Below are positions 15,990 through 30,626 of a DNA stretch of 44,664 nucleotides, piece by piece. A program made the translations under genes and the position numbers. The notes under the pieces are model-generated. The model ran no database searches. It was not told the origin of the DNA and worked only from the letters and a program-made list of their open reading frames with translations. Each line of letters opens with the position of its first letter. Position 1 is the first letter of the stretch. The DNA lies in the IMG/VR virus record IMGVR_UViG_3300002461_000491, positions 1 through 44,664 of that record. One strand, 5' to 3'. Source of the DNA: a virus.

Positions 15990-18653
15990 TCAGGCAGCGC
16001 GGGCGATCCGGGCCGCAGCGCTGAACAGCACCAGGCTGGTGTTGGCGTTCTTGCGCTGGGTGGGGGTGTGGCACACGATGAACTGCTCGCCGTAGTTTTC
16101 ACGGGCGCCGACGAACATGCCGTTGTTGTCCCGCGCCTCCTCCAGGTTGTTCATCGAGAACGGCCGCATCATGCGGAAGCGGGTGTTGGCCCGCTCACCC
16201 ACCAGGATGCGCACGTCACCGGTGTTCAGGCCCGGCGCACGGGTGTTGAAGGCCGGGATGCCCTTGACCATGCCCACGCTGCCATCGGCGTTCAGACCCG
16301 ACCCGGGGCGCGACCCGTTGGCGGTGAAGGTGGTGGCCTGGCCCAAGGCGTTGTCCACCGCGCCGCTCATCAACAGCAGGTTGGCGGTGTAGTAGCGGTC
16401 GTTCTCCACCACCACCTTGCGCGCGCCGATGAAGTTGAGCACCCGGTCGTACACCGCCCCGATGGTGTCCGGCGACGCGCCAACGTCGATGTTGACCTTG
16501 CTGGCGTTGAGCGTGTAGGTGTAGGCCACGGTCAGCACCCAGCCGTTGGTGGGGGTGGCCAGAACGCCCAGCTCGTTCACAAAGCGGATCTCACCCAGGT
16601 TGTAGTCCATCACCCAGTACAGGCCGGCCGCCAGGGTGGTGCCGCTCACGTACTCGGAGCGAGCAACCGCGTTCAAGGTCACCGTGACGCCCTGCAGCGT
16701 GCTGCCAACCTGCACACCCTTCAGATCGAACACGCGGCGCGGCCGCACCACCGGGAACTGCGTCAGGATGAAGATCTTGTTGGTGCCGTTCACCTGCGCG
16801 GTCAGCGTGTCCGTGATGGTGGCGGTCAACGCCTCGTCGCTCGAGCGCAGCACCTCGTTCTGGATCACCGAGTCGGTGTCCTCACCCACGATGCGGATGA
16901 CGTTGCGGGTGTTCTCGGCCAGGGGGTCGAAGTCGATCGGGCTGCCACCCAGCAGGTACCGCATTTCGTTGCTGAGCTTGAAGCTCAGCTTCTGCGGGAT
17001 GGGGCGCGCCTCCTCGAACGTCTGGATCACGCCGGCACGCGGGATGGCCTGGTTCTCGTAGGTGCGGGCCTGGGACACGCCAGCGCCGGTGGTGTCACGG
17101 TAGCTGTACGGGATCTGCACCACCGCAGCAAAGTCCACCGTGCCCACGTTGACGAAGCTCAGGCCGACCATCTGGTACAGCGCTTCACGCAGCACAGTGC
17201 GCTCGAAGATGGCGGGCACACCCACGTCACCGCTGTTGCCGCTGCCGGCGGCCAGCATCTTGTGCTCATTGGACAGGCGGGCACCGTGAATCAGGTCAAA
17301 GTGCGCCAGCGCCTTCTCGGCAAAGGCCTTGTTGTGCGCCAGAAGCTGGCCACCGGTGCGGGCGTAGCGCTCGGCATCGGGCATGCCAACGATGCCCAGG
17401 CGCCGGTCGACCTGCTCCTGCAGAGCCTTCACCTGGTTGCCGGATTCGACCGTGATGTGCACGCTGCCGGAAGCCGGGCGAAAGCCCAGCGTGGCCAGCT
17501 GCTGGGCGGCACTGACCTGCGTGTACTTGGTGATGGCGAACTCGGCCAGGCGCTTCACCTGGTCGTCGCTCAGTTCCTTGGTCACCAGGGGCTGCAGCTC
17601 GGCCACCAGGGCGGTCTTCACCTCGTCGGCAATGCTGGGCGCGGCGGCCACGGTGTCGCTCAGCAGCTTGACCTTGCCGGCCAGGGCGGTGGCGGCCTCG
17701 GTGGCGGTGGCGGCCTGCTGGGCCAGCACGCGGCCCACCTCGGCCTGCACGGCGGTGGCGTCCATGCCTGCGCCGACCTGCAGGTTGATCACCGGGGCCA
17801 GTTGTGCACCGCCAGGGGCGGCCAGCGCCTTCAGCTGGGTGTGCAGGGCCTGGCCAGCGGCGCAGAACGTGTCCACCATCGCCAGGCACTTGGTGTCGTC
17901 AGCGGCTGCGGCTTCCAGCTGCTTCAGCGCAGCGTCGAGGATGGGTTGGCACTGCGCTTCAGTCAGGCCCAGGGCCAGCAGTTTTTCGCGCAGGGCCTTC
18001 AGGTGCTTGTTCATGGTGTCGATCTCCGTCAGGGTCTTCAGCAGGGATGGGTGGATGGCCAACTTGGCCGTGTCGTCGTCGGGGTCGGCTGTGCCGTCGT
18101 GGCTCAGCTGCACAGGGTCCAGGTTCTTGACCACGGGGCGCGTGGTCAGCCCGGCGCCCAGCAGCACGCAGCCGTGGGCGTTGCCCTTCTCGTTGTCGCG
18201 CCAGTCCTCGTGGTACTCGGCGCTCAGGTAGGAAAAACCGCGCTTCTTGACGGCATCGATCCCGAAGTCCGTCCACTCCACCAGTGCGCGCAGGCGGCCG
18301 TTGTCCACGGCCAGCTTGACCACGCGGCAGGCGGCACCGTCACTGGGCTTGTGCGCCACGTCGAAGAACACGTCCTGTCCCAGAACGCGGCCGTCGAAGT
18401 TGCTCACCATCTGCGCCAGCATGGCCGGCGTGATGTCGAAAGCCCCATACCGTGGGTCAGTGAAGGTGCCCGTCCGGGTCACCGTCACCCACGATGTCTT
18501 CGCGCCATCGGCCAGCGTGATGGGCAGGGAGAGAAACCTCACCCGGCCCGGCGCGCCGTTGTCTTCTGCCAAGAAGATGTGGCGCGCCACCGCGGGGCAG
18601 CGCGCCACGAACTCGGCAAGCCGAGGAGACATGTGCAGGGATTGGTGGTGCAT
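15990..18653 (-). CDS. Fused prohead protease (Mu gpI-like) - scaffold - major capsid protein, 887 aa
   Basis: Residues 1-200 look like the Mu-like prophage I protease family (FFDVAHKPSDGAACRVVKLAVDNGRLRALVEWTDFGIDAVKKRGFSYLSAEY...LTTRPVVKNL). Residues about 215-430 are Ala/Leu/Gln-rich coiled coil. Residues about 430-887 are capsid-like. There is no stop codon in 2.66 kb. An alternative ATG is at 18632. Confidence 0.65.
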   Translation of the reverse strand: MHHQSLHMSPRLAEFVARCPAVARHIFLAEDNGAPGRVRFLSLPITLADGAKTSWVTVTRTGTFTDPRYGAFDITPAMLAQMVSNFDGRVLGQDVFFDVAHKPSDGAACRVVKLAVDNGRLRALVEWTDFGIDAVKKRGFSYLSAEYHEDWRDNEKGNAHGCVLLGAGLTTRPVVKNLDPVQLSHDGTADPDDDTAKLAIHPSLLKTLTEIDTMNKHLKALREKLLALGLTEAQCQPILDAALKQLEAAAADDTKCLAMVDTFCAAGQALHTQLKALAAPGGAQLAPVINLQVGAGMDATAVQAEVGRVLAQQAATATEAATALAGKVKLLSDTVAAAPSIADEVKTALVAELQPLVTKELSDDQVKRLAEFAITKYTQVSAAQQLATLGFRPASGSVHITVESGNQVKALQEQVDRRLGIVGMPDAERYARTGGQLLAHNKAFAEKALAHFDLIHGARLSNEHKMLAAGSGNSGDVGVPAIFERTVLREALYQMVGLSFVNVGTVDFAAVVQIPYSYRDTTGAGVSQARTYENQAIPRAGVIQTFEEARPIPQKLSFKLSNEMRYLLGGSPIDFDPLAENTRNVIRIVGEDTDSVIQNEVLRSSDEALTATITDTLTAQVNGTNKIFILTQFPVVRPRRVFDLKGVQVGSTLQGVTVTLNAVARSEYVSGTTLAAGLYWVMDYNLGEIRFVNELGVLATPTNGWVLTVAYTYTLNASKVNIDVGASPDTIGAVYDRVLNFIGARKVVVENDRYYTANLLLMSGAVDNALGQATTFTANGSRPGSGLNADGSVGMVKGIPAFNTRAPGLNTGDVRILVGERANTRFRMMRPFSMNNLEEARDNNGMFVGARENYGEQFIVCHTPTQRKNANTSLVLFSAAARIARAA

Positions 18654-18733
18654 GGCGGGCCGATGATCGGCCGCCCACCGGTGACGTTTGAAGGGGTGGG
18701 TTATGCGCCGACAGGCCTGTGCGGCGGCCGGCG

Positions 18734-19012
18734 CTAAGGGCGCTGGTCTGCGGTCTGCACAGTGTCAGCGTAGGCGCTGTCCTGCTGGTCCCACCAGCTG
18801 GCTGGCATGGGCTGGGCTTCAGCCACGTTCTGCCAGCGCCGGCCATCCCACAGGGTCAGCACGCGCCCGCCGTCACCCAGCACGCGCCACACGGCGCCGG
18901 TGGCATGGGCCAGCATGGTGGCGGCCTGTTGCACGCGCTGCGCATCGCCCAAAGGGTAAGCGGTGCCCACACTGCGCCAGCCGCTGGTGGTGTAGTGCTG
19001 CAGGATCAGCAT
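18734..19012 (-). CDS. Hypothetical protein translationally coupled to the integrase (92 aa)
   Basis: Its ATG at 19012 overlaps the integrase stop (ATGCTGA). Composition is plausible, with no recognisable motif. Confidence 0.45.
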   Translation of the reverse strand: MLILQHYTTSGWRSVGTAYPLGDAQRVQQAATMLAHATGAVWRVLGDGGRVLTLWDGRRWQNVAEAQPMPASWWDQQDSAYADTVQTADQRP

Positions 19013-20034
19013 GCGGCTGCCTGGTCAGACATCGGCACACGCTTCCAGTCGTTGCGCGACAAGCCCCGGTCATTGAGGTAGATCTCGGTAATCTCGATGT
19101 CGCTGTGGCCCAGCAGGGTCTGCAACACCTTGCGGTCCAGGCCCTGGGCCTCGTAAGTGCGGGCAGCAAGCGACCGGGTTTCATGCAAGCTGGGCCGCTT
19201 GTGCGTGCCGGGGTCCTTGTCTCCCAGCACGGCCTTGATGTGCTGGCAGAACCTGGCCGACAGGCTGCTGATCTCAATCGGCCGGCCGCTGGCTTGGCGC
19301 AACAGCGTGGGCCCTGGCTTGGCCGACTGGCGGCAGTGCTCGATCACGTCACCCACCGTCATGCCGATGCAGTCCATGCGCAGCGTCAGCGGGATCTCTA
19401 CTCGGGCGCCGTAGCCCTTGCCGGCTTCCTTCTGTTGCTCGATGCGCAGGTGCCCGTCCACCACATCGTCGAACCGCACCTTGCCCAGGTCGGCGCGGCG
19501 CTGGCCGATGGCCAAGCCCAGCAGCAGCATCGACTCGACCCAGCGCTGCGGGCAGGCCTGGGCCAGCGTGCGCATTTGCATCCAGACCTCGAGCTCCAGC
19601 CGCTCGCGCATCACCTTGTGCTTTGGCGGCTTGATGTCGCGCGCCGGGTTTGTCTCGGCCCAGCCGTTGGCGATCGCCTCGACGTAGGCGTCGCGCAGCT
19701 CGGACAGCACGCGCACCGCCGTGCTGCTCTTCTCCTTTGGGAATGTGCGCAGCGCGCTGGCCACCGCGTGTGGCTTCAGCTCGGCGATCGGCACCGTGCC
19801 CCACAGCCGCCGGACATGCGCCAGGTTGCTGCGGCGGTTCTTGATCGTCTGGGCCTTGTAGCCCCGGGTCAGCAGGATGCCGTCGTGCATGTCCAGCCAG
19901 TCGGCCAGTGTGCGGGCCGCTGCGATCGGCTGCGCTGTCGGCACAGCCGCAGGTGCGGGCAGGCCACCAGCCGGCAGCATGCGCAGGGCCTGCGCCATCA
20001 TTTCCAGCATGCCGGCCAGGTCGGCCGGAGTCAT
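19006..20034 (-). CDS. int: Tyrosine integrase, lambda/phage-integrase family
   Basis: 342 aa carrying the catalytic signatures GQRRADL (Arg), HETRSLAAR (HxxR) and LLGHSDIEITEIYL (His...Tyr). Confidence 0.85.
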   Translation of the reverse strand: MTPADLAGMLEMMAQALRMLPAGGLPAPAAVPTAQPIAAARTLADWLDMHDGILLTRGYKAQTIKNRRSNLAHVRRLWGTVPIAELKPHAVASALRTFPKEKSSTAVRVLSELRDAYVEAIANGWAETNPARDIKPPKHKVMRERLELEVWMQMRTLAQACPQRWVESMLLLGLAIGQRRADLGKVRFDDVVDGHLRIEQQKEAGKGYGARVEIPLTLRMDCIGMTVGDVIEHCRQSAKPGPTLLRQASGRPIEISSLSARFCQHIKAVLGDKDPGTHKRPSLHETRSLAARTYEAQGLDRKVLQTLLGHSDIEITEIYLNDRGLSRNDWKRVPMSDQAAAC

Positions 20035-20570: not shown

Positions 20571-21062
20571 TCAGCCGGCCGGGTGCTTCACCGGCAGCGC
20601 GGCCAGTCGCCTGTACTTCTCGGGCGTGTCGTGGCCGTCCCACTTGCCGGTGTAGGCCGGCAGGTCGGCGAACAGGTACGCCTGCGAGTCGTGGAAGTGC
20701 CAGGACGCCTGCCCGGTCGGCAAGTCGATGTAGACGCAGCCGTGCCAGTCTTCCGACCACCCCTCGATGGCCGTCCGCGCCACGCCTGACGGGTACGCCT
20801 TCGCCAGCGCGGCCACCACCTGGTTGCGTTCGAGGTAGGCCGCATCCTTGCGGGCCTCCATGTCCTTCAGCGCGTCACCGCCTGGCGTCGGGTACAGGTC
20901 GGCGTGCAGCACGTCAGATCCGCAGCCACGGCAGCGCCACAGCGAGCGCTTGCCGCCGCGCTGGTTGATTTCGTCGCCGTGGATGTTGCGCACGAAGTCG
21001 AACTCCAGGTGCTGGCAGAGCAGGCGGCGGATGAAGGTCAGGAGGGCCATAGGCAAGTGCAC
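20571..21062 (-). CDS. Conserved phage protein with ASWH...WDGH C-terminal motif
   Basis: 159-163 aa (GTG at 21062 or ATG at 21050). The sequence includes WRCRGCGSDV, then TGQASWHFHDSQAYLFADLPAYTGKWDGHDTPEKYRRL. I recall a phage WDGH-motif domain family, but this is unverified. Confidence 0.5.
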   Translation of the reverse strand: MHLPMALLTFIRRLLCQHLEFDFVRNIHGDEINQRGGKRSLWRCRGCGSDVLHADLYPTPGGDALKDMEARKDAAYLERNQVVAALAKAYPSGVARTAIEGWSEDWHGCVYIDLPTGQASWHFHDSQAYLFADLPAYTGKWDGHDTPEKYRRLAALPVKHPAG

Positions 21063-21077
21063 CGGCAGGGGATGGGA

Positions 21078-23834
21078 TCAGACCTCGATCAGCCAGAAAT
21101 AGCTGTTCTCGTCGGCTGTGCGCACCGTGCAGACAAAGCCGGTGGCATCGGTCAGCAGGGAGCGCGGCGCAGCGCGCTTGACCCCAGCACGGTTCAGCGC
21201 CGAGACACGCGGGCGGCCCTTGGCTGTCTGCACAACCTTGAGCGTGGCCGCCACGTCGCTGGCCTGGATGGGGTAATCGCCACCTCCGCCCGCCGCGATG
21301 GTCTTGCGCGTGGCGTCGGTGAACGCCATGCCGGTGTTCTGGCTGTCGCCGGCCAGCCCAATCAGCAGCTTGCGCGACAGGCCGATGTCCAGTCCATCCA
21401 GGCTGGTGACGAACATCGATGCATCGGTGGTCAGCGCGTCGATACGCACATTGCCGAACGTCACCGGCAGCGAGGCCCCGACGTGGCTGAAAAACACCGT
21501 GCGGGCGGTGTTGATCCAGGTTTGCTTAGTGCGCCGCGACCAGCCCCATTGCAGGTTGCCGGCCACCACCACGTTGGCGCCCTCGGACCAAGTGCCTGCC
21601 GAAAGTGCGCCGCTAGCCGCGGCAAAGCTCGCGCTTGTGATCTGCACGAAGTCGCCGGTGCCCTTGGTGATCGTCAGCGGCCCGTTGCGCAGTCCGGTGC
21701 CCGGCCAAGTGCCCGAAGCCCCTGTGATGTTGGAAATGAAGATCACGTCGCCAGTCACCAGCGTGTTGCCGGTGAGCGTGAGCACCGGCGACCCTTGGGT
21801 GGCGGTGAGACCGCCCACAGTGCCGGTGAAGGCGATGGCCGCGATATTGCCGCTGTTGGCTGTCACGCTCACCAGCGTTGGGTGATCTGCCGCGATGGCG
21901 CCGGCTGCCTGCGCTTCACTGGCAAGCGTGGAGAGCTGCTTCGGATTCCAAGTTGCAGCCAGCGCGTCGTCGGTGGTGTCATCGGTCCAATCGACGCCCG
22001 CACGGCGCAGAGCCGCGATGAAGTAAAGCGGCTGCAACAGCGTGAACATTGAGCGCGCCGGCCGCGCCGTGTTCACCGGATTGGTGCCGTAGTGCCGCTC
22101 GTTCAGCAGAATCTGCTGGCGCTTGGTGACGTCCATCGGCGACACATCGCCCCGCAGCATCAGCGCGGCCAGCATCACCCGCACGAAATCGTTGGTGACG
22201 TTGCCGGGGCAGTGGTACGGCTCGATGCGGCGCAGCCGGTTGCCGTGCGTGGTCGTGTCGTTGAAGTAGTCAAGCGCAAAGACGTCACCCTGGGCAAAGT
22301 GGGTCATGTACTGGCTGTCGTGGGTGCGCGTCACTGCCGCCATCACCGGGAACTGCGCCATGTACTTGCACCAGGCCGGCCACCCGTACTCGGCAGCGAC
22401 GAAGGGTTTGTTGTTGTTCAGCAGCGACGGCATCAGCATCGCGTTTTCGTAGTCCCAGATGGGCGAATTCCCCTGTGGGGCCAGCATGGTGCTGCCGTCT
22501 GCAATGCCGTTGTTGATCACGGTGCTGTAAGCGTGCGGCGCGTAGACCTGATTGATCGGGTACTTGCCGTAGCCTCGGCCCTCCAGCAGCGTGTGATAAA
22601 TCTCCGACCACCAGGTGATGCCGGGGAATCCCAGCGCAGTGATCTGTGCACTGAAGAAAGCGGCGAGGTCATCCTCCAGGTACTGCGCGTACTTGACCGC
22701 ATCGACGGCCTGGCGCGTGGACGGAAAGCTGGTGTTGAACGGGGGAACCGTCACCGCAGCAGCGACAGCAAACGATGCGTGAGCGCTGCCCCAGGCAGTA
22801 TTGAGGGCGGCCAAGTTCGCGTAGCCGTGCGACTTGGCGGAATCGCTCAGCCACTCCACCCAGGTCTGCGCCGCAGGCGTACTGCCGCCGGTGCGAGTCA
22901 GCCAGACTGAAGGGAACTGCACCTGGGCGCAGAACGTGGTGGACTGCTCGTTGAAGACCGACACCGCCAGCATGGCGGGGTCTTGCAACATGTTCAGCCC
23001 GGTGTAGGGGTTCACACGGTTCAGCAGCGCGCTGACGCCTGCGGTCCAGTTGGCGCGAATGTTTGCCTCGGTATACATGCGAGGCTTGGCGCTGCTGGCT
23101 TCGGTGTAGGTAAACCGGTTCGTTGCGCCGTCCATGTCCAAGAACAGGTTGTAGCTCTGGACGTTGAACACCCAAAAGATGCCCACTCGCTTCAGTTCGG
23201 ACAGGAAGAAGTCGAACAGGTCCAGCCGCGCAGGATTGAAGATGGCTGCGCCATCGATCCCAGCCATGAGCCAGTTTTCGACACCATGAATGCGCAGCCC
23301 GTTGTAACCCTGCCGGGCAAGGTTCTCGGCCGCAGCAGTCACCGCTGCGCGGTCGCTCGGGATTGGCGCGAAGGTGGTGTCGGGCGCCCAGGATGCGACG
23401 TTGAAACGCACCTCGACGCCAGCCTCATGCAGCTTGGTGCCGCTGACGGTGACCCGGCCACGGCTTCCAGCTGGCGTGGCGGTGGTACGCCACGTTGACA
23501 GGTCCAGCGCCCCAAGGGGTGCAATGGCGAGGGATTCGTCCTCCAGCGGTAGCCGGGCATTGGCAAAAGTTGCGGGCGCCACCTGCTGAGAACGAATCCC
23601 ACCCTCTGACACCAGGGCTAGAGCTTGGGCGGCCTGGGCCTCAGGCATCAGCCCGTAGCGCTGACCATCCACCTCGATCACCGGGTCCTTGCCGGCCTCA
23701 TCGATGACAGTCAGCGCAGGGTTTCGCGGAAGCGCTGCGCCATCGTCGACGAAGACGCCATCCCCGGGCAGCACCATGCGGCCGTCGATCGGCCGTGGCC
23801 GGCTGGTGGTGTTGGCGACCCAGATCTTGCCCAT
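21078..23834 (-). CDS. Large clan GH-A (GH5-like) glycoside hydrolase-like protein, candidate polysaccharide depolymerase
   Basis: ATG at 23834 is preceded by AGGAG with a 5-nt spacer (the track start at 23867 is upstream of it). The sequence shows GYNGLRIHGVENW, LAVSVFNEQS (the Asn-Glu acid/base motif, Glu codon 22947-22949) and FVAAEYGW (candidate nucleophile Glu, codon 22389-22391). A beta-rich tail of about 350 aa follows. GC3 is lower than in the core genes. Confidence 0.55.
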   Translation of the reverse strand: MGKIWVANTTSRPRPIDGRMVLPGDGVFVDDGAALPRNPALTVIDEAGKDPVIEVDGQRYGLMPEAQAAQALALVSEGGIRSQQVAPATFANARLPLEDESLAIAPLGALDLSTWRTTATPAGSRGRVTVSGTKLHEAGVEVRFNVASWAPDTTFAPIPSDRAAVTAAAENLARQGYNGLRIHGVENWLMAGIDGAAIFNPARLDLFDFFLSELKRVGIFWVFNVQSYNLFLDMDGATNRFTYTEASSAKPRMYTEANIRANWTAGVSALLNRVNPYTGLNMLQDPAMLAVSVFNEQSTTFCAQVQFPSVWLTRTGGSTPAAQTWVEWLSDSAKSHGYANLAALNTAWGSAHASFAVAAAVTVPPFNTSFPSTRQAVDAVKYAQYLEDDLAAFFSAQITALGFPGITWWSEIYHTLLEGRGYGKYPINQVYAPHAYSTVINNGIADGSTMLAPQGNSPIWDYENAMLMPSLLNNNKPFVAAEYGWPAWCKYMAQFPVMAAVTRTHDSQYMTHFAQGDVFALDYFNDTTTHGNRLRRIEPYHCPGNVTNDFVRVMLAALMLRGDVSPMDVTKRQQILLNERHYGTNPVNTARPARSMFTLLQPLYFIAALRRAGVDWTDDTTDDALAATWNPKQLSTLASEAQAAGAIAADHPTLVSVTANSGNIAAIAFTGTVGGLTATQGSPVLTLTGNTLVTGDVIFISNITGASGTWPGTGLRNGPLTITKGTGDFVQITSASFAAASGALSAGTWSEGANVVVAGNLQWGWSRRTKQTWINTARTVFFSHVGASLPVTFGNVRIDALTTDASMFVTSLDGLDIGLSRKLLIGLAGDSQNTGMAFTDATRKTIAAGGGGDYPIQASDVAATLKVVQTAKGRPRVSALNRAGVKRAAPRSLLTDATGFVCTVRTADENSYFWLIEV

Positions 23835-23841
23835 TGCGGCT

Positions 23842-23876
23842 CCTGAAACGCGGGCGAAGTCCCGCACGGTTTCAGG
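23842..23876 (-). promoter_or_regulatory. 5' leader stem-loop overlapping the glycosidase Shine-Dalgarno
   Basis: The mRNA reads CCUGAAAC-cgu-GCGGG-acuucg-CCCGC-GUUUCAGG-AGccgcaAUG. This is 13 bp of stem with a 3-nt bulge, and the 3' arm contains the first three bases of AGGAG. Confidence 0.5.
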
Positions 23877-23918
23877 ATTGGGCTTGTCCTCTCAGGACAT
23901 TTGCACCCCTGCGCGCAG

Positions 23919-25517
23919 TCACGCGGCCAAGCGCTGCAGCCTCAGCTCGACGGTTCGCAGCAAGCCCGGAACGGGGAGCCATCCATGCTTGCTACGAACC
24001 GAGGTCCCATCCATCTGGATGAGGCACTCGGGCTTGTAGCTCACCACCAGGTCGACGTCGTTGACCACGATGTGGTCGACGATGGTGGCAATGAATGCTC
24101 GCAGCGTCGGCAAGTCCTTGGCGCCTGTGATCGCCTGCCGCATCAGCGAGGCTGCCTCGTCAGCTGACACCCTCGCATCACCCACCACGGGCTCCTGCTC
24201 GTCTTCGATCGCCACCAGCGCATTCTCCAGCCGGCGGATCTGTGCGCTCAGTTCATTGACTCGCGTCATCGTGGGGGCCAAATCCGGGGTATCGCGGCCA
24301 GCGGCCTCCAGGATGTCGAACAGCTTGCCGCGGCGCTGCTCAGCGCTGCGCAGCTCGAGCACCATGGCCGTGCGCCGGCTCGCACGGTCCTTCACCCAGC
24401 GCGCCGCAGCCTCATCAAGGCCGTCCAACACGCGCTGGATGACATCCACGTTCAGCACCAGGTCGAGAAGGTCGGACAGCATGCGCTGGTCGAACGCATC
24501 GGCAGGTACAGGCTTGAACGCGCATGGCTGGCCTTGGTTGTGAGCACGGCAGGCGTAGTAGTGGTAGAGCCTGCCAGCTCGGCCCGTGCCATTGGTCATT
24601 TGCAGCGACGATCCGCAGTTTCCGCACTGCATCAACCCGGCAAACACGTGCTGAGCGGTGTGCGGCGGCCTGCCCTTGCCCGGAGTGCGCCCTGTCAGCG
24701 CCGATTGCACCTGGTTGAAGTCGTCGCCCGCCAGCAAAGGCGGGTGAGCCTGCACCCGGATCCACTGGTCTTCTGCCCGCTCGGCCTTGGTCTTGCGGTT
24801 GAACCTGTTGTAGATCACGCGTCCCATGTACACCTCGTTCTTCAGCAGGTAGAGCACGCTGTTCTTGCTCCATTTCTTGCCACGCATAGTCACGCCCTGA
24901 CCGTTCAGGCCCAGCGCGATGCCATATGCCCCTTGCCCCTCCAGCGACTGCCGGAAGATCATCCGCACGATCTCGGCCTCATGGCCCAGCGGCACCAGCC
25001 GATGGCGCCGCCCATCATCAGCCTGCACAGCCTGGTAGCCAAAGGGCACCCTGCCGCCCATGAAGTACCCCTCGCGGGCCGCCTTGATCATGCTGCGCTT
25101 GGTGTCGGCCGAAACCTGGCGTGAATAGCCCTCGTCCATCACCTGCTGGATGCTGTCGAGCATCCAGCCTTCCATGGTCTCCAGGTCCAAGCTGGAGTGG
25201 GCATAGACCAGCTTGGTGCGGTGGCTGGCCAGCTCGCGCTTGTAGGTAATGGCGTCGTGCTGGTCGCGTGCAAACCGACTGCTGCTCCAGCACACCATGA
25301 AGTTAATGTCGCCGGCGCTGCAGCGGTTGATGGCAGCCCGGAAGCCCGGCCGGGCGTCGGTGGTGCCGCTGATGCCGTCGTCACGATAGACCTGCAGCAC
25401 CACCGCGCCGAGCTCGGCGGCCTTGTGCTGGCAGGCGTCAATCTGGCTGTCGATCGAAAGCCCCTCTTCGGCCTGGCGCTCAGTGCTCACGCGGGCGTAC
25501 ACGATCGCTCGCTTCAT
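23919..25517 (-). CDS. Large serine recombinase (phage serine-integrase type)
   Basis: ATG at 25517 gives MKRAIVYARVSTERQ (catalytic Ser motif), a resolvase domain, a recombinase domain, a zinc ribbon (CGNCGSSL...YYACRAH) and a C-terminal coiled-coil region. About 532 aa. Confidence 0.85.
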   Translation of the reverse strand: MKRAIVYARVSTERQAEEGLSIDSQIDACQHKAAELGAVVLQVYRDDGISGTTDARPGFRAAINRCSAGDINFMVCWSSSRFARDQHDAITYKRELASHRTKLVYAHSSLDLETMEGWMLDSIQQVMDEGYSRQVSADTKRSMIKAAREGYFMGGRVPFGYQAVQADDGRRHRLVPLGHEAEIVRMIFRQSLEGQGAYGIALGLNGQGVTMRGKKWSKNSVLYLLKNEVYMGRVIYNRFNRKTKAERAEDQWIRVQAHPPLLAGDDFNQVQSALTGRTPGKGRPPHTAQHVFAGLMQCGNCGSSLQMTNGTGRAGRLYHYYACRAHNQGQPCAFKPVPADAFDQRMLSDLLDLVLNVDVIQRVLDGLDEAAARWVKDRASRRTAMVLELRSAEQRRGKLFDILEAAGRDTPDLAPTMTRVNELSAQIRRLENALVAIEDEQEPVVGDARVSADEAASLMRQAITGAKDLPTLRAFIATIVDHIVVNDVDLVVSYKPECLIQMDGTSVRSKHGWLPVPGLLRTVELRLQRLAA

Positions 25518-25584
25518 TCCACCCACCTTATCGCCAAGCCCTGGCGCGCGCCAATGAATCGGCCGCCGGTTTCAATCAATGCAG

Positions 25585-26133
25585 TCATCCAGCCGCCCTG
25601 GCCCGACCGGCTGCAGCCAACCGCTTGATGTGCCGGTAGCTGAGCTTTTCCCCCAGGTCCTTGTGCACCATCGCGTGGATGTCGCTGGGCTTGATGCCGG
25701 CCTGCACCAGGGTGGCGATGTACCGATTTCGCTGATACCGCTCGAAGGCTCGGAAGGGCCGCAGGCGCAGCTCGATCTGGTCGTCATCGTTGCGCAAGGC
25801 CGGGTCGGCGGAAAGCAGGCGCCACATGGCCACAAACTGCTCATAGCCCAGCAGCTGCGCCACAGACAGCCACGTGGCCGACAGGCCGATTTCGGCCAAT
25901 TCGCGCAGACGCACGTCGGCGCGAAGTTCTGAAGCAGTGCATCCGTTCAGGTACCCACCTCCCCACGGACGCACCGCCATGGTGCGCTGCCGAGCCCCCA
26001 CCCCCTTTGCACCAATGCTGTGCGTTGCGCCATTTCGGTGCGTATTGGGGGGGATCAGCTCAGGGAACAGGTCCTGGTTGATGTCTGCGCTGGATCCACT
26101 GCGCGATTCAGCAGGCATGGCCGCTCCTCGCAC
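25585..26133 (-). CDS. Mor/C-like transcriptional regulator candidate (C-terminal HTH)
   Basis: 177-182 aa. ELAEIGLSATWLSVAQLLGYEQFVAMW...RPFRAFERYQRNRYIATLVQAGIKPSDIHAMVHKDLGEKLSYRHIKRL follows the layout of Mu Mor-family activators. The start is uncertain (26133 or 26118). Confidence 0.35.
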   Translation of the reverse strand: MRGAAMPAESRSGSSADINQDLFPELIPPNTHRNGATHSIGAKGVGARQRTMAVRPWGGGYLNGCTASELRADVRLRELAEIGLSATWLSVAQLLGYEQFVAMWRLLSADPALRNDDDQIELRLRPFRAFERYQRNRYIATLVQAGIKPSDIHAMVHKDLGEKLSYRHIKRLAAAGRARAAG

Positions 26134-26269
26134 CAGGTGCAGCAGGCCCGATCACTGCGTGATCTGACAGCAGGCGCAGTGCACCCTCCCGGTGCAATTT
26201 GTGTTGCCTAGATGAGTTAGCCCGGGTTGTAACAGAGTTTGGGAGTTGCTCGGAATCGTCCTGCGACAT
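26108..26269 (-). CDS. Possible small ORF (53 aa) overlapping the Mor-like gene start
   Basis: ATG at 26269 is preceded by AAGGAA with a 6-nt spacer (MSQDDSEQLPNSVTTRANSS...). It is in a different frame from 25585..26133. It could be a separate gene or a sign of a frame error. Confidence 0.3.
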   Translation of the reverse strand: MSQDDSEQLPNSVTTRANSSRQHKLHREGALRLLSDHAVIGPAAPGARSGHAC

Positions 26270-26365
26270 CGATGTTTCCTTGGTGTGCGTGAACGGAGCC
26301 CAGCACCGCTCTAGGGGTTGTGTGGCCGGCCGGGTTGCGGATGCATCCATGGATCGACCCCTGGC

Positions 26366-27373
26366 CTATAGGCGCTTGAGCACTTCGCTGACGGGGCTGG
26401 TCATCTTCGACAGCGGCCCGCTGGCGTCGAGCACCTTGGTCTTGCGGCGCATGCTCATGGCCGTGTAGATGGCTGTGCTCTTGGGGTCGACGTGGCCCAG
26501 CAGCTCCTGCCGGGTGATCAGGTCCACGTTGTCCTCGGCCAGCTCCACACCGAAAAGGTGGCGGAAGGCGTGCGGGTGCCGCTCATCGGCAGGCACCCCG
26601 GCCTTCTCGCCGTGGCGCTGGATGATCCGCCACACCGCTCCACGCGACAGGCGCACCGCCTCGCCTCGCCACAGGTGCGCGGGCACCCGGCTGTTGACGG
26701 TCTGCACGAACAGCACCTTGTCCGGGCGCCCATGCTTGTCCAGGATGTCGCGGTCGTAGGCCTTCAGGCCCTCGTGGTCCAGGTAGATGCGCAGCAGCAT
26801 CTCTGCCTCCCTAGGCACGGGCAGCATGCGCTCCTTCTCGCCCTTCTCGGTCACGCGGATCACCAGGCGCGTCTTGCCGTCGACGTCGCTGTTGCGCAGA
26901 TCTCCCTCATCCAGGCCTACCAGCCCGCCGACACGCAGGCCGCAGCCCAGCAGCAGCGACAGCAGTGCCGCATCTCGAATCCCGATGAACGTGTTGAGGT
27001 CAGGGGCCCACATCAGCTTTTCGGCGCTGGCCAGGCTCAGTGCCTGGGGCAGCGGCATGCCGGTCTTGGGGTGCTCCAGCTGGTGGGATGGGTCGTGCTC
27101 GATGTGGCCACGGCCGCGCGCCCAACCGTAGAACCCGCGCAGCGCGCTGATGTACGGCTTGCGACTGCGGGCCACCACGCCACGCTTGTGCAGCCAGATC
27201 CCGCTAAACGCCTCGAGCTCGACGGCCGTCGCCTGCACCAGGCTCTTCTCGCCGGCAAGAAACTCCTGCAGCCTGGCCAGGGCCATGCCGTAGCTCTCAA
27301 GCGTGCGCGGCCGCCGGCCGCGGCTGGTCTCCAGGTGCTGCAGGAAGCCGCGGATGGCTTCGTCGTCGGTCAT
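26366..27373 (-). CDS. Xer-type tyrosine recombinase (335 aa)
   Basis: ATG at 27373 gives MTDDEAIRGFLQHLETSRGRRPRTLESYGMALARLQEFL (SAM-like N-domain). The catalytic signatures are GCGLRVGGL (Arg), HAFRHLFG (HxxR) and LLGHVDPKSTAIYT (His...Tyr). The 70 upstream codons of the track ORF run through the repeat region and were rejected. Confidence 0.8.
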   Translation of the reverse strand: MTDDEAIRGFLQHLETSRGRRPRTLESYGMALARLQEFLAGEKSLVQATAVELEAFSGIWLHKRGVVARSRKPYISALRGFYGWARGRGHIEHDPSHQLEHPKTGMPLPQALSLASAEKLMWAPDLNTFIGIRDAALLSLLLGCGLRVGGLVGLDEGDLRNSDVDGKTRLVIRVTEKGEKERMLPVPREAEMLLRIYLDHEGLKAYDRDILDKHGRPDKVLFVQTVNSRVPAHLWRGEAVRLSRGAVWRIIQRHGEKAGVPADERHPHAFRHLFGVELAEDNVDLITRQELLGHVDPKSTAIYTAMSMRRKTKVLDASGPLSKMTSPVSEVLKRL

Positions 27374-27488
27374 CGTGGTCACAGGGTTCGGCCGGCTCGC
27401 TTGGGGGGACACAGGCATTCCACCAGTGGAAGCGTGGATCGGCAACACGTGGGGCGAAAAGCGCAATGCCGACAAGCACTTACCGCAA

Positions 27489-27781
27489 TGTGGCATCCAC
27501 GGAAAACCCGTGGATTGGCCCGCCGACCTGTGGTTACTTTTGCTTACCGTTTGTGCAACCTGTGGATGCAGCTCACTCGACACGCGGCCCTCTCTTTGCC
27601 TACTTTCCTTTTTGAATCAATGATTTAGAGAGAGAGAACAAGCGTGGGCAGCGGAATAGTCAATGTGGAGAAAAGCCGCCGACCTGTGGAAAAAATGGCC
27701 CAACCTGTGGAAGAACACTGCGCATTCCAAAGGGCTGTTTTGTTAGTAGATCAATGACTTACGGCATTTGTATCCACAGGT
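27489..27781. repeat. Noncoding array of ACCTGTGG / DnaA-box-like motifs (candidate origin, iteron set or att arm sites)
   Basis: CCGCCGACCTGTGG occurs at 27520-27533 and 27676-27689. CAACCTGTGGA occurs at 27556-27566 and 27701-27711. ATCAATGAyTTA occurs at 27616-27627 and 27750-27761. TATCCACAGGT (reverse orientation) is at 27771-27781. ATCCACGG aaaac CCGTGGAT is an inverted repeat at 27495-27515. An AT-rich stretch spans 27601-27640. Confidence 0.7.
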
Positions 27782-28101
27782 CCACGGGTTCTAGCGTGCG
27801 CCCCTGCCTTGCCATTCAAGAAAACAGCACGGTCGGCCCCCTGCCCTTCGGGTCTTCCCTGATCCAGGCCGGCAGGCTTCTGCGTGGTGGGGTGCGGGGA
27901 GCGGACGGCAGGCAACTGCCGCCGGCATCGTGTGCGGCGTGTGCCCGGGTAACCCGCGCTGGCGCTCTGGCCTGATGGCCAGATCGATCCAGGCGCGCCT
28001 AACGGCGCGCGGTCAATGGGGTGGTGGCCTGGCGGCCACCGGGCCTTGCAGGGCCGCCAACTGCGTCGGCGCCGTGCCTCGGCCGAACGGCCGCGTCGGC
28101 T

Positions 28102-29211
28102 TCAGATGCGGCCCTGGCGCGTCAGCCGCTGGCGCACGTCTGCCACCCGGCTGCGCACCATGCCGCGCGTCAGCAGGCCTTGGTCAAAGTAGGCCGCCTT
28201 GGTCGGGCCCAGCACGCCGGCGCGCAGCTCGGGCGCCAGCCTGGCCAGCGCCTGGTTGGTCGTCTCGATGCCGGCCCGGTCAGCGTCGGTCACCTCGTCC
28301 TCGAACACCGCCACCACAAAGCTCAAGGTGTTGGGGTGCGCTGGCCAGGGCGTGCGCTTGCGGTCGGGGTACACGCCAGCGCCCAGCCCGTGCAGGTTCT
28401 GGCGGGCCAGCAGGTCGCAGATGTCCGGGCGCGGGTGGCGCGGGCTCAGCAAGAACCGGAACCCCAGCACCGCACCAGACCTCTCGGCGCCGGCCATGTA
28501 CGCCTCGCCGTGGGCCCGGTTGATCTCTGTGCGCGCCACCCGCAGCGTGTTCGGCAGCGCGCCATTGTTCGGTTCCACGAGGTGGTCAGCACCGCGCAAC
28601 AGGTTGCCCACGGCTGATGCCTGCTGCGCTTGGGCGGTTGCCGCCGGCACCGCCTGCCCACGCAGCAGAAACTGCTGCGCCGCGGTGTCCGCGCTCCACC
28701 CCTGCACCACAGCCTGCTCCACCGTGCGGTGCACAGCCTCCCGGGCGCCACGGTCCACACGCCAAAGACGGTCACTCAGCACCAGGCCGTCGGCAGCCCT
28801 GAATGCCCGAACGAACTGCACCGCGTCGTCGACCAGGCGCAGCGCCTCGGCGCCGTCCAGCAGCGCCTCCACCTGGCGGCCGGTGGCCAGGATGCCGGCA
28901 GCCGTCAGCGGCCGCACGCCCAGCTCGGCCGCGCGCTCGATCGCGCCGTCCAGCAGCTGCGTGCGCAGGCTGGCCAGCGCGTCCAGCACCTGGTCGATGC
29001 GATCAAGCAACCCGCGCAGCTGGTCCAGCCGCACCTGCGCCCCACTGTCGGCCGCCTGGGCGATCGCCATGCGCACCTGCTCAGCCGCGTCTGAGTAGAT
29101 GCGCGTCAGCTCCGTCTCCGTCTCAGCATCCAGCTGCTGCATCTGGTTGCGCGCCTGCTGGCTGGCCCGGCGGATCGCCGCGCCCGTGCAGTCGGCCAGC
29201 AGCCGGGCCAT
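28102..29211 (-). CDS. Head morphogenesis protein, SPP1 gp7 / Mu F-like
   Basis: ATG at 29211 overlaps the portal stop (ATGA). 369 aa. VARTEINRAHGEAY matches the MuF-family signature. It is directly downstream of the portal gene. Confidence 0.7.
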   Translation of the reverse strand: MARLLADCTGAAIRRASQQARNQMQQLDAETETELTRIYSDAAEQVRMAIAQAADSGAQVRLDQLRGLLDRIDQVLDALASLRTQLLDGAIERAAELGVRPLTAAGILATGRQVEALLDGAEALRLVDDAVQFVRAFRAADGLVLSDRLWRVDRGAREAVHRTVEQAVVQGWSADTAAQQFLLRGQAVPAATAQAQQASAVGNLLRGADHLVEPNNGALPNTLRVARTEINRAHGEAYMAGAERSGAVLGFRFLLSPRHPRPDICDLLARQNLHGLGAGVYPDRKRTPWPAHPNTLSFVVAVFEDEVTDADRAGIETTNQALARLAPELRAGVLGPTKAAYFDQGLLTRGMVRSRVADVRQRLTRQGRI

Positions 29212-30626
29212 CAGCCTCGGCCCCGGCCGTTGTTGCTGCCCGGCACGCTGATCGATGTGGCGCTGCCCCCCTTGGGCGCATTGCCTGGCGTCACGCTCAC
29301 CCTTGGCGCGGCCGCGCCGGCCCCACCAGGTGCGGCCCCGGGGGGCGCAGCAGGCCCTGCAGGGTACGGGTTGGCGCGGGCCCCCCACGCTTCCACCGCC
29401 TTCAGGATGTGGGCAGGGTCATAGCCCATCTCCTCCCACACCAGCGGCGGCGGGAAGCCCAGCGCGCTCAACTTCAGCGCCAGATCCGCCACCTGGTTTG
29501 GCGTCTCGGTCCGGCGCTCCGAAAAGCGCAGTGTGAATTCTTCAGGCCCCGCCACGATGCCCCGCAGCAGCAGGTGGATGCGGAAACACCATTCGTACTC
29601 GAACGCCTGGCTGTCCTGCAGGTGGTCGATCTCGTCGTAATAGTCGCGCTTCAGGTCCTCGAGAACGTCGCGCGCCAGCCCGTCCACATAGCCGAACAGC
29701 CCCTTGGGCGCCGGGGTGCCTGCGAAGAAGCTGTCCAGCAGGTGCACCACGTCCTCGATGTCACCCAGGTTGGCATCACCCTGCACCGCTGTCACAGCGC
29801 CGCGCCGGTTGGCGTAGAAGTCGGTGGTGATCTCACCCTTCTCACCCTCAACAGTCTTGCGGTAGGCCTCCAGCTCGTCGCTGGTGGCGGCCTCGAGCAC
29901 GTGGCTCAAGCGCAACGGCGCGCGCTGGCGCCGGCGGATCACCAGATCCTCCTCCGTCATCACCAGCTTGCGCCAGGTCTCGCAGGTCGCGTCCAGGAAG
30001 GGCCGGCCCATCTCGCCCATGTCGTCGTAGCTCAGCGGGTCGAACCGCGCCAACTGCAGCTGCCAGGCCGCGAACGTCGCCAGCACGCCGCCCGTCAGCA
30101 CATCGCGCTGCTCATAGGCCCGGGCCGGGTCGGCAAACCGGCCGCTGTGGTCGACCAGCGGCACGATGGTTTCCGCCGGCATGCGCACCGCGGCCACCAC
30201 CCGTTGGCTGTCGTCCAGCACCAGCTGCAGCGGCAGGTTGCCCTCGGCCACCAGGCCGCGGGCGTCGCTGCGCAGCTTCTGCACCCGGTTGAGCTGCAGA
30301 CGCTGCTCAAACGCCAGCCACTCACGGCGCAGCACCGCGCTGGCCGTGCCATCGGTGAACTGCATCACAAGGCCGCCGCGCACCGTGTCGCGGCAGATGC
30401 GGCCGTGGATCGCCTTCACCCGCCCGTCCCGCGCCTCCATCTGCCGCAGCAGGATGATCTTGTCCCGCACCTCGGTGCTGATGGCGAACTGCCGGTACCA
30501 GCGCGCCAGCGCCACATCGGCCGCCACCCGGTGGCCCCGCTCGGCCGCCGGGCGCTGGTACAGCGGCGCCAGCGCGGCGCGCATCAGGTCAGTGCCGGCC
30601 GCAGCCAACGTCTTCAGGTAGCTCAT
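29211..30626 (-). CDS. Portal protein
   Basis: 471 aa, between TerL and the MuF-like gene, with an acidic core and a Gly/Pro/Ala-rich C-terminal tail. The call rests on position and size. Confidence 0.65.
   Translation of the reverse strand: MSYLKTLAAAGTDLMRAALAPLYQRPAAERGHRVAADVALARWYRQFAISTEVRDKIILLRQMEARDGRVKAIHGRICRDTVRGGLVMQFTDGTASAVLRREWLAFEQRLQLNRVQKLRSDARGLVAEGNLPLQLVLDDSQRVVAAVRMPAETIVPLVDHSGRFADPARAYEQRDVLTGGVLATFAAWQLQLARFDPLSYDDMGEMGRPFLDATCETWRKLVMTEEDLVIRRRQRAPLRLSHVLEAATSDELEAYRKTVEGEKGEITTDFYANRRGAVTAVQGDANLGDIEDVVHLLDSFFAGTPAPKGLFGYVDGLARDVLEDLKRDYYDEIDHLQDSQAFEYEWCFRIHLLLRGIVAGPEEFTLRFSERRTETPNQVADLALKLSALGFPPPLVWEEMGYDPAHILKAVEAWGARANPYPAGPAAPPGAAPGGAGAAAPRVSVTPGNAPKGGSATSISVPGSNNGRGRG

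Follow-up and report, generated by a model that had tools for sequence, protein, structure and literature searches.

A clan GH-A glycosidase-like gene beside phage recombinases: a candidate virion-anchored exopolysaccharide depolymerase

The viral sequence IMGVR_UViG_3300002461_000491 of IMG/VR (44,664 nt; the whole stretch was analysed and is called the window below) contains a large gene whose 918-amino-acid-residue product resembles a glycoside hydrolase (GH). This GH gene lies between head genes and next to recombinases, and it runs in the same direction as the late operon. The question is what a glycosidase-like enzyme does at such a place in a phage genome. The explanation that we judge best, and hold to be reasonably probable, is that the GH gene encodes a virion-anchored depolymerase of exopolysaccharide (EPS) at an exchange-prone locus beside the recombinases.

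The open reading frame (ORF) of the GH gene spans 21078-23867 (-). An ATG at 23834 is preceded by the Shine-Dalgarno (SD) sequence AGGAG at 23840-23844 with a 5-nt spacer. This ATG is the likely start codon because the N-terminus that follows it, MGK(I/T)WV, was found again in homologues and related proteins. ORF, SD sequence and recurring N-terminus all agree with the 918-residue product given in an earlier reading of the sequence (the original prediction). The three motifs quoted there were all located by a codon-by-codon check: GYNGLRIHGVEN at residues 176-187, LAVSVFNE with N295 (22950-22952) and E296 (22947-22949), and AAEYGW with E482. E296 and E482 are the residues formerly called E307 and E493, in a numbering counted from a GTG start, and their positions agree with the predicted separation of 186 residues.

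A model of the protein was obtained with AlphaFold2 (AF2; predicted local distance difference test [pLDDT] 88.2, predicted template modelling score [pTM] 0.87), and it contains the (β/α)8 barrel, or TIM barrel, that had been proposed. When the model was compared with the PDB by Foldseek, the top 13 matches were all GH5 enzymes (E 2e-8 to 3e-6, probability 1.00), the best being mannanases and mannosidases (8gf3, E 2e-8, TMt 0.61; others, TMt about 0.6). Strand assignment by DSSP placed N295-E296 directly after strand β4 (288-292), H434 and Y436 on strand 434-436, and E482 within strand β7 (478-484). Placement of these residues on β4, β6 and β7 is the canonical clan GH-A arrangement. R181, N295, E296, H434, Y436 and E482, which include both candidate Glu residues of the original prediction, were invariant in 47 homologues (32-66% identity alignment), and this invariance is far beyond chance. 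The family profile, run against the PDB, matched the GH5_7 mannanase 8gf3 (E 2.4e-8), and in this match the N-E dyad fell on that of the mannanase. Since the fold, the strand positions and the invariance of both Glu residues agree, assignment of the modelled protein to the (β/α)8 glycosidases of clan GH-A is strongly supported. It is predicted to be a retaining β-glycanase, with E296 as acid/base and E482 as nucleophile.

GH5 β-mannanases and mannosidases such as BlMan5_7 (8gf3) and the enzymes of Thermotoga petrophila (3pz9) and Cellvibrio mixtus (Man5A, 1uuq) share with the window protein the barrel, the N-E after β4, the H-x-Y on β6 and the Glu on β7. However, the window protein differs from them in several respects. 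Identity to the GH5 structures is 10-13%, and the profile match is limited to β1-β4. The wide Glu-Glu spacing is due to a ~110-residue helical insert between β4 and β5, and ~350 residues of extra C-terminal domains are present. The β-rich C-terminal region of the original prediction corresponds to the final third of the AF2 model, where strands run from 661 to 917.

Membership of GH5 or GH42 specifically is not supported. No Pfam model, the GH5 model PF00150 included, matched the 918-residue protein at E <= 1, and thus no GH5 family-model match across the catalytic domain was obtained; PHROG and NCBIfam models gave no match either. Of the eight conserved GH5 residues (R, H, N, E, H, Y, E, W), the invariant ones are those listed above, and equivalents of the β3 His and the β8 Trp were not identified. 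There was no match of the window protein to the GH42 model PF02449. PF26410, a precomputed match of a small number of homologues, did not reappear at E <= 0.1, and the viral fold search in BFVD gave weak matches only, to putative phage glycosidases. GH42 and GH164 proteins are laid out as a barrel, a mixed α/β segment and β-rich domains. The domain order of the model resembles this layout, as in GH164 (Bs164, 6t5o), and the Foldseek alignments to GH164 chains are long (~850-890 columns). In contrast, TM-scores in these alignments are low (0.3-0.4), and no solved structure is related at the sequence level.

A search of 5.8 billion proteins gave 73 full-length homologues, nearly all of them metagenomic. 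Names were attached to two of the 73, both "hypothetical protein", one of which (PEC18_12110) comes from a prophage of Paucibacter sp. O1-1. The GTDB genome scan returned one true match and INPHARED one match, Microcystis phage Mel-JY34 (XAI96492.1), on which no paper was found in a literature search. Of the 5,089 cluster representatives that an exhaustive profile search retrieved at E <= 1e-3, those of only about 11 clusters are full-length relatives, and the next tier (E 1e-73 to 1e-51) has only the catalytic domain in common with them. The majority of the cluster representatives examined had no name from any source. Nine second-tier proteins gave sub-threshold GH5 matches, some passed the Pfam GH42 threshold over part of the barrel (22-37 bits), and no GH42-level similarity was found when second-tier relatives were compared with solved structures. 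Because these GH5 and GH42 matches are partial or sub-threshold, the group is placed between GH5 and GH42, with no model of its own. Residues ~96-918 belong to a rare GH family that occurs almost exclusively in phage contigs.

The nearest cellular relative found is encoded in a Burkholderiales metagenome-assembled genome (P0149/P0286, MBH1981176.1). It is colinear with the window protein over ~800 residues (E 2e-31, ~23% identity) and keeps all of the catalytic motifs. Directly before the conserved start it has a signal-peptide-like segment. Its gene lies inside an exosortase-type EPS biosynthesis cluster (L057/L058:10001-12262), together with genes for EpsH, EpsI, a pyruvyl transferase, GT2 and GT4 glycosyltransferases, asparagine synthase, a heparinase II/III-like protein and UDP-glucose dehydrogenase. 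This homologue is the strongest clue to the substrate class. PslG of Pseudomonas aeruginosa (GH39, clan GH-A) is a glycanase of an EPS locus, and BcsZ follows the same logic. MBH1981176.1 is likewise a signal-peptide-bearing GH-A protein within an EPS cluster. PslG belongs to a different GH family, and the phage protein differs in having a phage-specific N-terminus and no signal peptide. Apart from the phage gene, the P0149-type protein in its EpsH/EpsI cluster may represent an uncharacterised family of EPS-processing glycanases.

The phage-specific N-terminus belongs to the backbone of the phage. DNA identity of 82% to the closest sister phage, L051, is unbroken from 28500 to 23594 and ends at codon 80 of the GH gene; homology to another sister phage, L038, resumes at 18698, a short way upstream of the gene for the 887-residue head protein. 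The GH body, the WDGH-domain gene, small ORFs and tyrosine integrase 1 are therefore a window-specific block, since the L051/L038 homology breaks there. Sister phages, which were located via the 887-residue head protein and the N-terminal module (N-module), keep the order MuF-like gene, tyrosine integrase 2, small gene and serine recombinase. After the recombinase the N-module always comes first, and the remainder differs. Stand-alone N-module proteins have 111-159 residues (P0079-P0081). In L052, a 139-residue N-module protein precedes a separate ORF, at least 835 residues long, that has a GQSN motif; this ORF matches the PDB entry 2apj, "Putative Esterase" (E 5e-5), and we read it as O-acetylesterase-like. 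In L038 the N-module is fused to a CE4-like body, whose PF01522 match (E 0.0045) falls short of the Pfam cut-off. In L041 it is fused to a different body of 577 residues, and a weak match links the C-terminus of that body to a PHROG annotated "virion structural protein". A lineage-conserved N-terminal module with an exchangeable enzymatic body was thus found at this locus, and the window protein is a fusion of the backbone N-module and a horizontally exchanged GH body.

The other end of the body is marked by a 21-nt motif, TCCCATCCCCTGCCGGTGCAC, directly after the GH stop codon (one copy observed, none expected by chance). An identical copy follows the unrelated CE4-like gene of L038 (L038:5352-5372), where neither flank is related to that in the window, and another follows a 42%-identical GH gene in L017 (L017:2187-2207). 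Near-identical copies follow GH homologues at L002:12588-12608, L004:12533-12553, L010:6582-6602, L011:5551-5571 and L030:3669-3689, and the motif is also listed at L003:12690, 13239 and 13645. The next ATG is often 0-12 nt beyond it. Possible roles of the motif are those of a linker between modules, a recombinase site or a translational element.

Wherever the flanking sequence of a homologue was long enough for a judgement, the gene lay within a phage structural operon. These operons belong to phages of quite different types, namely siphophages, podophages whose portals are T7-type or P22-type, and a Mu-like myovirus prophage; as a rule the gene stands between those for portal and capsid, or it closely follows the capsid gene. 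At 16 distinct loci a gene for a conserved partner of ~220 residues lies immediately upstream, the stop and start codons often overlapping. The GH homologue at loci with a partner has 29-44 residues before the conserved start, or 1 residue in the 3'-truncated L026, where the partner match is weak. At loci with no partner, 71-143 residues precede the conserved start in eight of nine distinct cases, the exception being Mel-JY34. The partner is predicted to be an all-β protein (pLDDT 86), with weak fold matches to a carbohydrate-binding domain of a cyanophage short tail fibre, to legume lectins and to the CBM2 of the phage J-1 Dit. Its own N-terminus is variable. In the lambda-like phage L054, whose GH homologue is 36% identical to the window protein, the N-terminus of the partner is a full head-decoration/cement domain (PF09956, E 2e-14; phrog_122, E 7e-17), 34% identical to the separate cement protein of the same phage. 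No homologue of the partner is present in the window, and no decoration/cement domain was found in the window protein with Pfam or PHROG. We read the partner and the N-terminal extensions as alternative means by which the enzyme is attached to the particle, and the capsid would be the site of attachment in at least one phage.

These observations can be joined as follows. Most likely, the enzyme depolymerises host EPS during infection, and the phage would cut through the slime layer in this way. The N-terminal ~80 residues probably serve as an anchor or adaptor by which a variable enzyme is fastened to the particle, because sister phages encode the N-module alone or join it to other bodies. Residues ~96-918 are a horizontally exchanged cassette related to the secreted glycanase-like protein of a bacterial EPS cluster, and in the phage copies an N-terminal extension or a separate lectin-like partner would stand in place of the signal peptide. 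The cassette lies in a variable locus beside recombinases and a probable phage attachment site (attP), its 3' boundary being the conserved 21-nt motif. Of this reading, the fold, the conserved catalytic residues, the chimeric build, the variability of the locus and the EPS-cluster homologue are shown, whereas the substrate, the attachment to the virion and the part played by the N-module are inferred. The suggestion of an EPS or capsular polysaccharide depolymerase in the original prediction is independently strengthened by the EPS-cluster relative with its signal peptide and by the other bodies that sister phages have at this locus, two of them weakly similar to carbohydrate esterases, whereas lysogenic conversion, suggested there as well, has become unlikely.

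Several points weigh against a virion-anchored EPS depolymerase. The GH gene lies between the MuF-like and head protease genes, and the tail genes lie at 3.4-13.2 kb, which bears out the earlier statement that the gene is not part of the tail module. No known anchor domain was detectable in residues 1-90 with Pfam or PHROG, and the N-module part of the AF2 model has pLDDT <50. The conserved N-module could merely mark the recombination join of a cargo gene to a small backbone gene. The carbohydrate-esterase calls in the sister phages are weak (PF01522 below the cut-off; one PDB match at 5e-5). The substrate is inferred from the gene neighbourhood of one cellular relative and from mannanase-like fold neighbours, and the link to the capsid consists of one partner fusion in a phage other than the window phage.

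Some of these points would also fit a soluble depolymerase, an alternative that we consider possible but would hold only tentatively. Such an enzyme would be made late, would be absent from the particles and would be freed at lysis to thin the EPS around neighbouring cells, the N-module being a remnant of the small backbone gene that received the cassette. The lack of a recognisable virion-anchor domain, the low confidence of the N-terminal model and the position of the gene outside the tail module are consistent with it, and at the corresponding locus of the related phage L044 there are reverse-strand ORFs that look non-structural. But a free enzyme would not readily account for the complementarity of extension and partner, nor for the fusion of the partner to a cement domain. 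In addition, the N-module is joined in frame to three unrelated bodies, and start/stop overlaps with structural genes occur in other phages.

A doubtful variant of particle attachment is that the enzyme is displayed on the capsid instead of the tail, the N-module in the window phage and the variable N-terminus of the partner elsewhere docking on the head shell. The L054 partner would then carry at its N-terminus a copy of the phage's own cement protein, and the head would bear a lectin-like binder, a GH-A glycanase that digests the EPS around the particle, or both. This would be a natural "phage display" of an enzyme captured from a host EPS locus and exchanged as a cassette bounded by the 21-nt motif and often accompanied by a tyrosine integrase.

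It is quite improbable that the GH gene is a moron for lysogenic conversion, by which the prophage would remodel the EPS of the lysogen together with the neighbouring cargo. Conversion genes of P22 and Sf6 sit at this kind of position, beside recombinases and attP, and the window locus is likewise beside recombinases and a probable attP; in L033 an Acyl_transf_3 gene and an integrase come after the GH homologue. However, conversion is unlikely because the N-terminus of the window protein, read from the translation, has no signal peptide or transmembrane segment while the cellular homologue has a signal peptide. The gene also runs in the direction of the late operon, and a search from 18.5 to 28.5 kb gave no sigma-70-like promoter. 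Hardly credible is an inactive glycan-binding protein for receptor recognition that keeps a GH-like fold: nothing specific speaks for it except that phage receptor-binding proteins sometimes reuse enzyme folds, and the N-E dyad, the H-x-Y and the nucleophile Glu are invariant at 32-66% identity, the catalytic residues being kept even in the ~23%-identical cellular relative.

The leader of the GH gene poses a question of its own. The original prediction described a 13-bp interrupted stem that reaches the start of the AGGAG, and this stem does fold (8+5 bp with a 3-nt bulge; 1 of 200 shuffles was as stable), its 3' arm covering three of the five SD bases. The inverted repeat TGTCCT/AGGACA noted nearby is also present. 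Translational control of the GH gene by the stem is not supported as proposed: a stem over the SD sequence exists, but it is a feature of the backbone spacer. L051-53, in which no GH gene comes next, have it in almost the same form, L038 has a shortened form, and a different hairpin replaces it in L041. Since it is kept in the spacer between recombinase and N-module of sister phages with no GH gene, the stem is part of the backbone. In other phages the GH homologues lack both stem and leader and abut the upstream gene. Covarying base pairs, for which the orthologous leaders had been proposed as a source, were not supported (RNAalifold term +1.78, unfavourable; four distinct sequences). No T-run and no terminator call were obtained, which rejects an intrinsic terminator, and a known RNA family was rejected as there was no Rfam match.

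We therefore regard it as unlikely that the hairpin is a translational attenuator which hides the SD sequence of the GH gene. The stability of the stem over the SD bases speaks for it, as does the finding that the minimum free energy folds of the window, L038 and L041 leaders pair upstream bases with the AUG region, each with different sequences. But the stem precedes whatever follows the N-module, the leaderless homologues and the missing covariation tell against such a role, and in DNA of 65% GC content such as this, longer leaders are only slightly more stable than shuffles (z -1.5 to -2.9). A prophage-type junction of L047 lies ~90 nt away, and an att-related or read-through-insulating role is equally possible. 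The stem could be a translational attenuator, an insulator against prophage read-through or an att-related element.

The evidence for a junction comes from L047 and L044, the two ends of one IMG/VR contig of a sister phage. At the end of this contig stands a truncated 3' half of a tRNA (T-arm, acceptor strand, CCA), into which the serine recombinase gene runs in antisense with its 3' end; L047:8549-8587 corresponds to about window 23963-23985. The tRNA end suggests a prophage junction and an attP ~90 nt upstream of the hairpin, and the enzyme locus would be attP-adjacent because the L047/L044 end is read in this way. Coordinates of the GH gene, its parts and its neighbours are collected in Table 1.

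Table 1. Features of the GH gene and its surroundings in the window
Feature	Position	Strand	Evidence
Whole GH gene, 918 aa; chimeric virion-enzyme candidate	21078..23834	(-)	ORF, SD + ATG; 73 full-length homologues; AF2 pLDDT 88
N-terminal backbone module, codons 1-80	23595..23834	(-)	DNA identity to L051; stand-alone and fused versions in sister phages
Conserved family start and (β/α)8 catalytic domain, ~residues 96-570, with ~110-aa insert β4-β5	22125..23549	(-)	DSSP strand order; Foldseek GH5; profile vs 8gf3
N295-E296, predicted acid/base dyad after β4	22947..22952	(-)	Invariant in 47 homologues; aligned to NE of GH5 mannanases; codons checked
E482, predicted nucleophile in β7	22389..22391	(-)	Invariance; strand position; codon checked
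C-terminal region, residues 571-918: mixed α/β segment, then β-rich domains	21081..22124	(-)	DSSP; GH164 Foldseek alignments; colinear with P0149 through DxQNTGM motif
21-nt motif TCCCATCCCCTGCCGGTGCAC, candidate cassette boundary	21057..21077	(-)	Directly after GH stop codon
13-bp interrupted hairpin, 3' arm overlapping AGG of SD	23842..23876	(-)	-19 kcal/mol, z -4.25
6-bp inverted repeat TGTCCT-GAG-AGGACA beside invariant TGCAAATG, in recombinase-to-N-module spacer	23885..23899	(-)	z -2.75
Large serine recombinase, immediately upstream	23919..25526	(-)	Resolvase + Recombinase + Zn_ribbon_recom; phrog_95 integrase, E 3e-105; conserved in sister phages
Tyrosine integrase 2 (26366-27583) and 182-aa protein (25585-26133), backbone genes	25585..27583	(-)	Common to sister phages
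MuF-like head morphogenesis gene, last canonical head gene before recombinase/enzyme block	28102..29388	(-)	phrog_1657, E 6.5e-32
WDGH-domain protein, 163 aa, window-specific block	20571..21062	(-)	PF25311, E 8e-6, 26.5 bits vs cut-off 27; seen only in window and L007
Tyrosine integrase 1, window-specific block	19006..20034	(-)	Pfam + PHROG; 59%, 49% and 37% identity to integrases of L033, L054 and L005
887-aa head protein with Mu gpI-type protease N-terminus	15990..18653	(-)	PF10123, phrog_328

The late operon on the minus strand reads large terminase, portal, MuF-like gene, tyrosine integrase 2, 182-residue gene, serine recombinase, GH gene, WDGH-domain gene, tyrosine integrase 1, 887-residue protease and tail genes. 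The GH gene had been described as lying just upstream of the capsid gene, which does not hold: the WDGH-domain gene, small ORFs and a tyrosine integrase intervene before the 887-residue protease/putative capsid gene. For the C-terminal half of that protein no PDB match was found and its identity was not confirmed. Three recombinases, two tyrosine and one large serine, thus stand between the MuF-like and head-protease genes, and two of them are conserved in sister phages. GC content falls from about 0.72 in the MuF-like gene to 0.59-0.68 over 19.7-28.1 kb.

Integrases related to integrase 1 of the window are encoded just downstream of GH homologues in L033, L054 and L005, at least two of which are clearly different phage backbones. 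At L033:10001-15113, in another siphophage, the capsid and head-completion genes enclose a row made up of a GH homologue, the Acyl_transf_3 gene and the tyrosine integrase. The gene order of Sf6 is tailspike, O-acetylase and integrase, which this row resembles. A simple recent insertion of the whole block was rejected, as tyrosine integrase 2, the 182-residue gene and the serine recombinase are conserved backbone in sister phages, and no att-like direct repeats were found flanking the stretch from GH gene to integrase. A small autonomous element, considered because of many ~3.2-kb contigs, was also rejected; these more likely reflect a selection effect, short assemblies that just hold the full-length gene.

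Other observations were made along the operon. A C4 antisense RNA (RF01695; 62 and 57 bits) was found at L038:1643-1732 and L047:6113-6203, in a ~1.2-kb insert between the 182-residue gene and the serine recombinase gene that the window does not have. A 28-nt imperfect inverted repeat (27673-27700 and 27763-27790) lies in the gap of lowest GC content (0.585), upstream of tyrosine integrase 2, and may be a regulatory or att region. At 18579-18608 (-), just inside the 5' end of the 887-residue protease gene, there is a 13-bp GC-rich terminator-like hairpin. Residues 695-828 of the J-like central tail fibre (1316 residues, 3420-7370 (-)) match a PHROG annotated glycerophosphodiester phosphodiesterase, and the tail tip may carry a second enzyme.

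Modular phage tailspikes and depolymerases (P22/Sf6 gp9-type, K1F/K5, CBA120) combine a conserved N-terminal module with exchangeable enzymatic bodies, and their anchor is either part of the enzyme chain or supplied by a separate adaptor protein. The window locus likewise has a lineage-specific N-module with swapped bodies, but the window protein has no β-helix and is encoded outside the tail module. Closer in enzyme type is gp095 of Erwinia phage S6, a GH5 cellulase that acts on cellulose, the first receptor of the phage (PMC9544554). Like the window protein, gp095 belongs to clan GH-A, has an N-terminal non-catalytic region and is encoded in a polymorphic genome region; it is directed at a host exopolysaccharide (PMC9544554), the probable kind of target of the window protein. 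The two differ in that gp095 is a bona fide GH5 enzyme of an N4-like phage, whereas the window protein belongs to an unmodelled family, its gene lies between head genes and its association with the virion is putative.

Known phage depolymerases are mostly β-helix tailspikes. The window protein would add a TIM-barrel depolymerase family that is missed by Pfam, PHROG and NCBIfam models. This family is apparently related to a host EPS-locus enzyme, in which particle-anchoring parts would have replaced the signal peptide. Its members are candidate enzymes against the EPS of Burkholderiales-type bacteria, and the floc formers of water treatment may be among those whose EPS clusters are of the exosortase type. 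The locus offers a clear natural example of enzyme-module swapping at one position in phages, and display on the capsid, if true, would be a new way for phages to carry enzymes.

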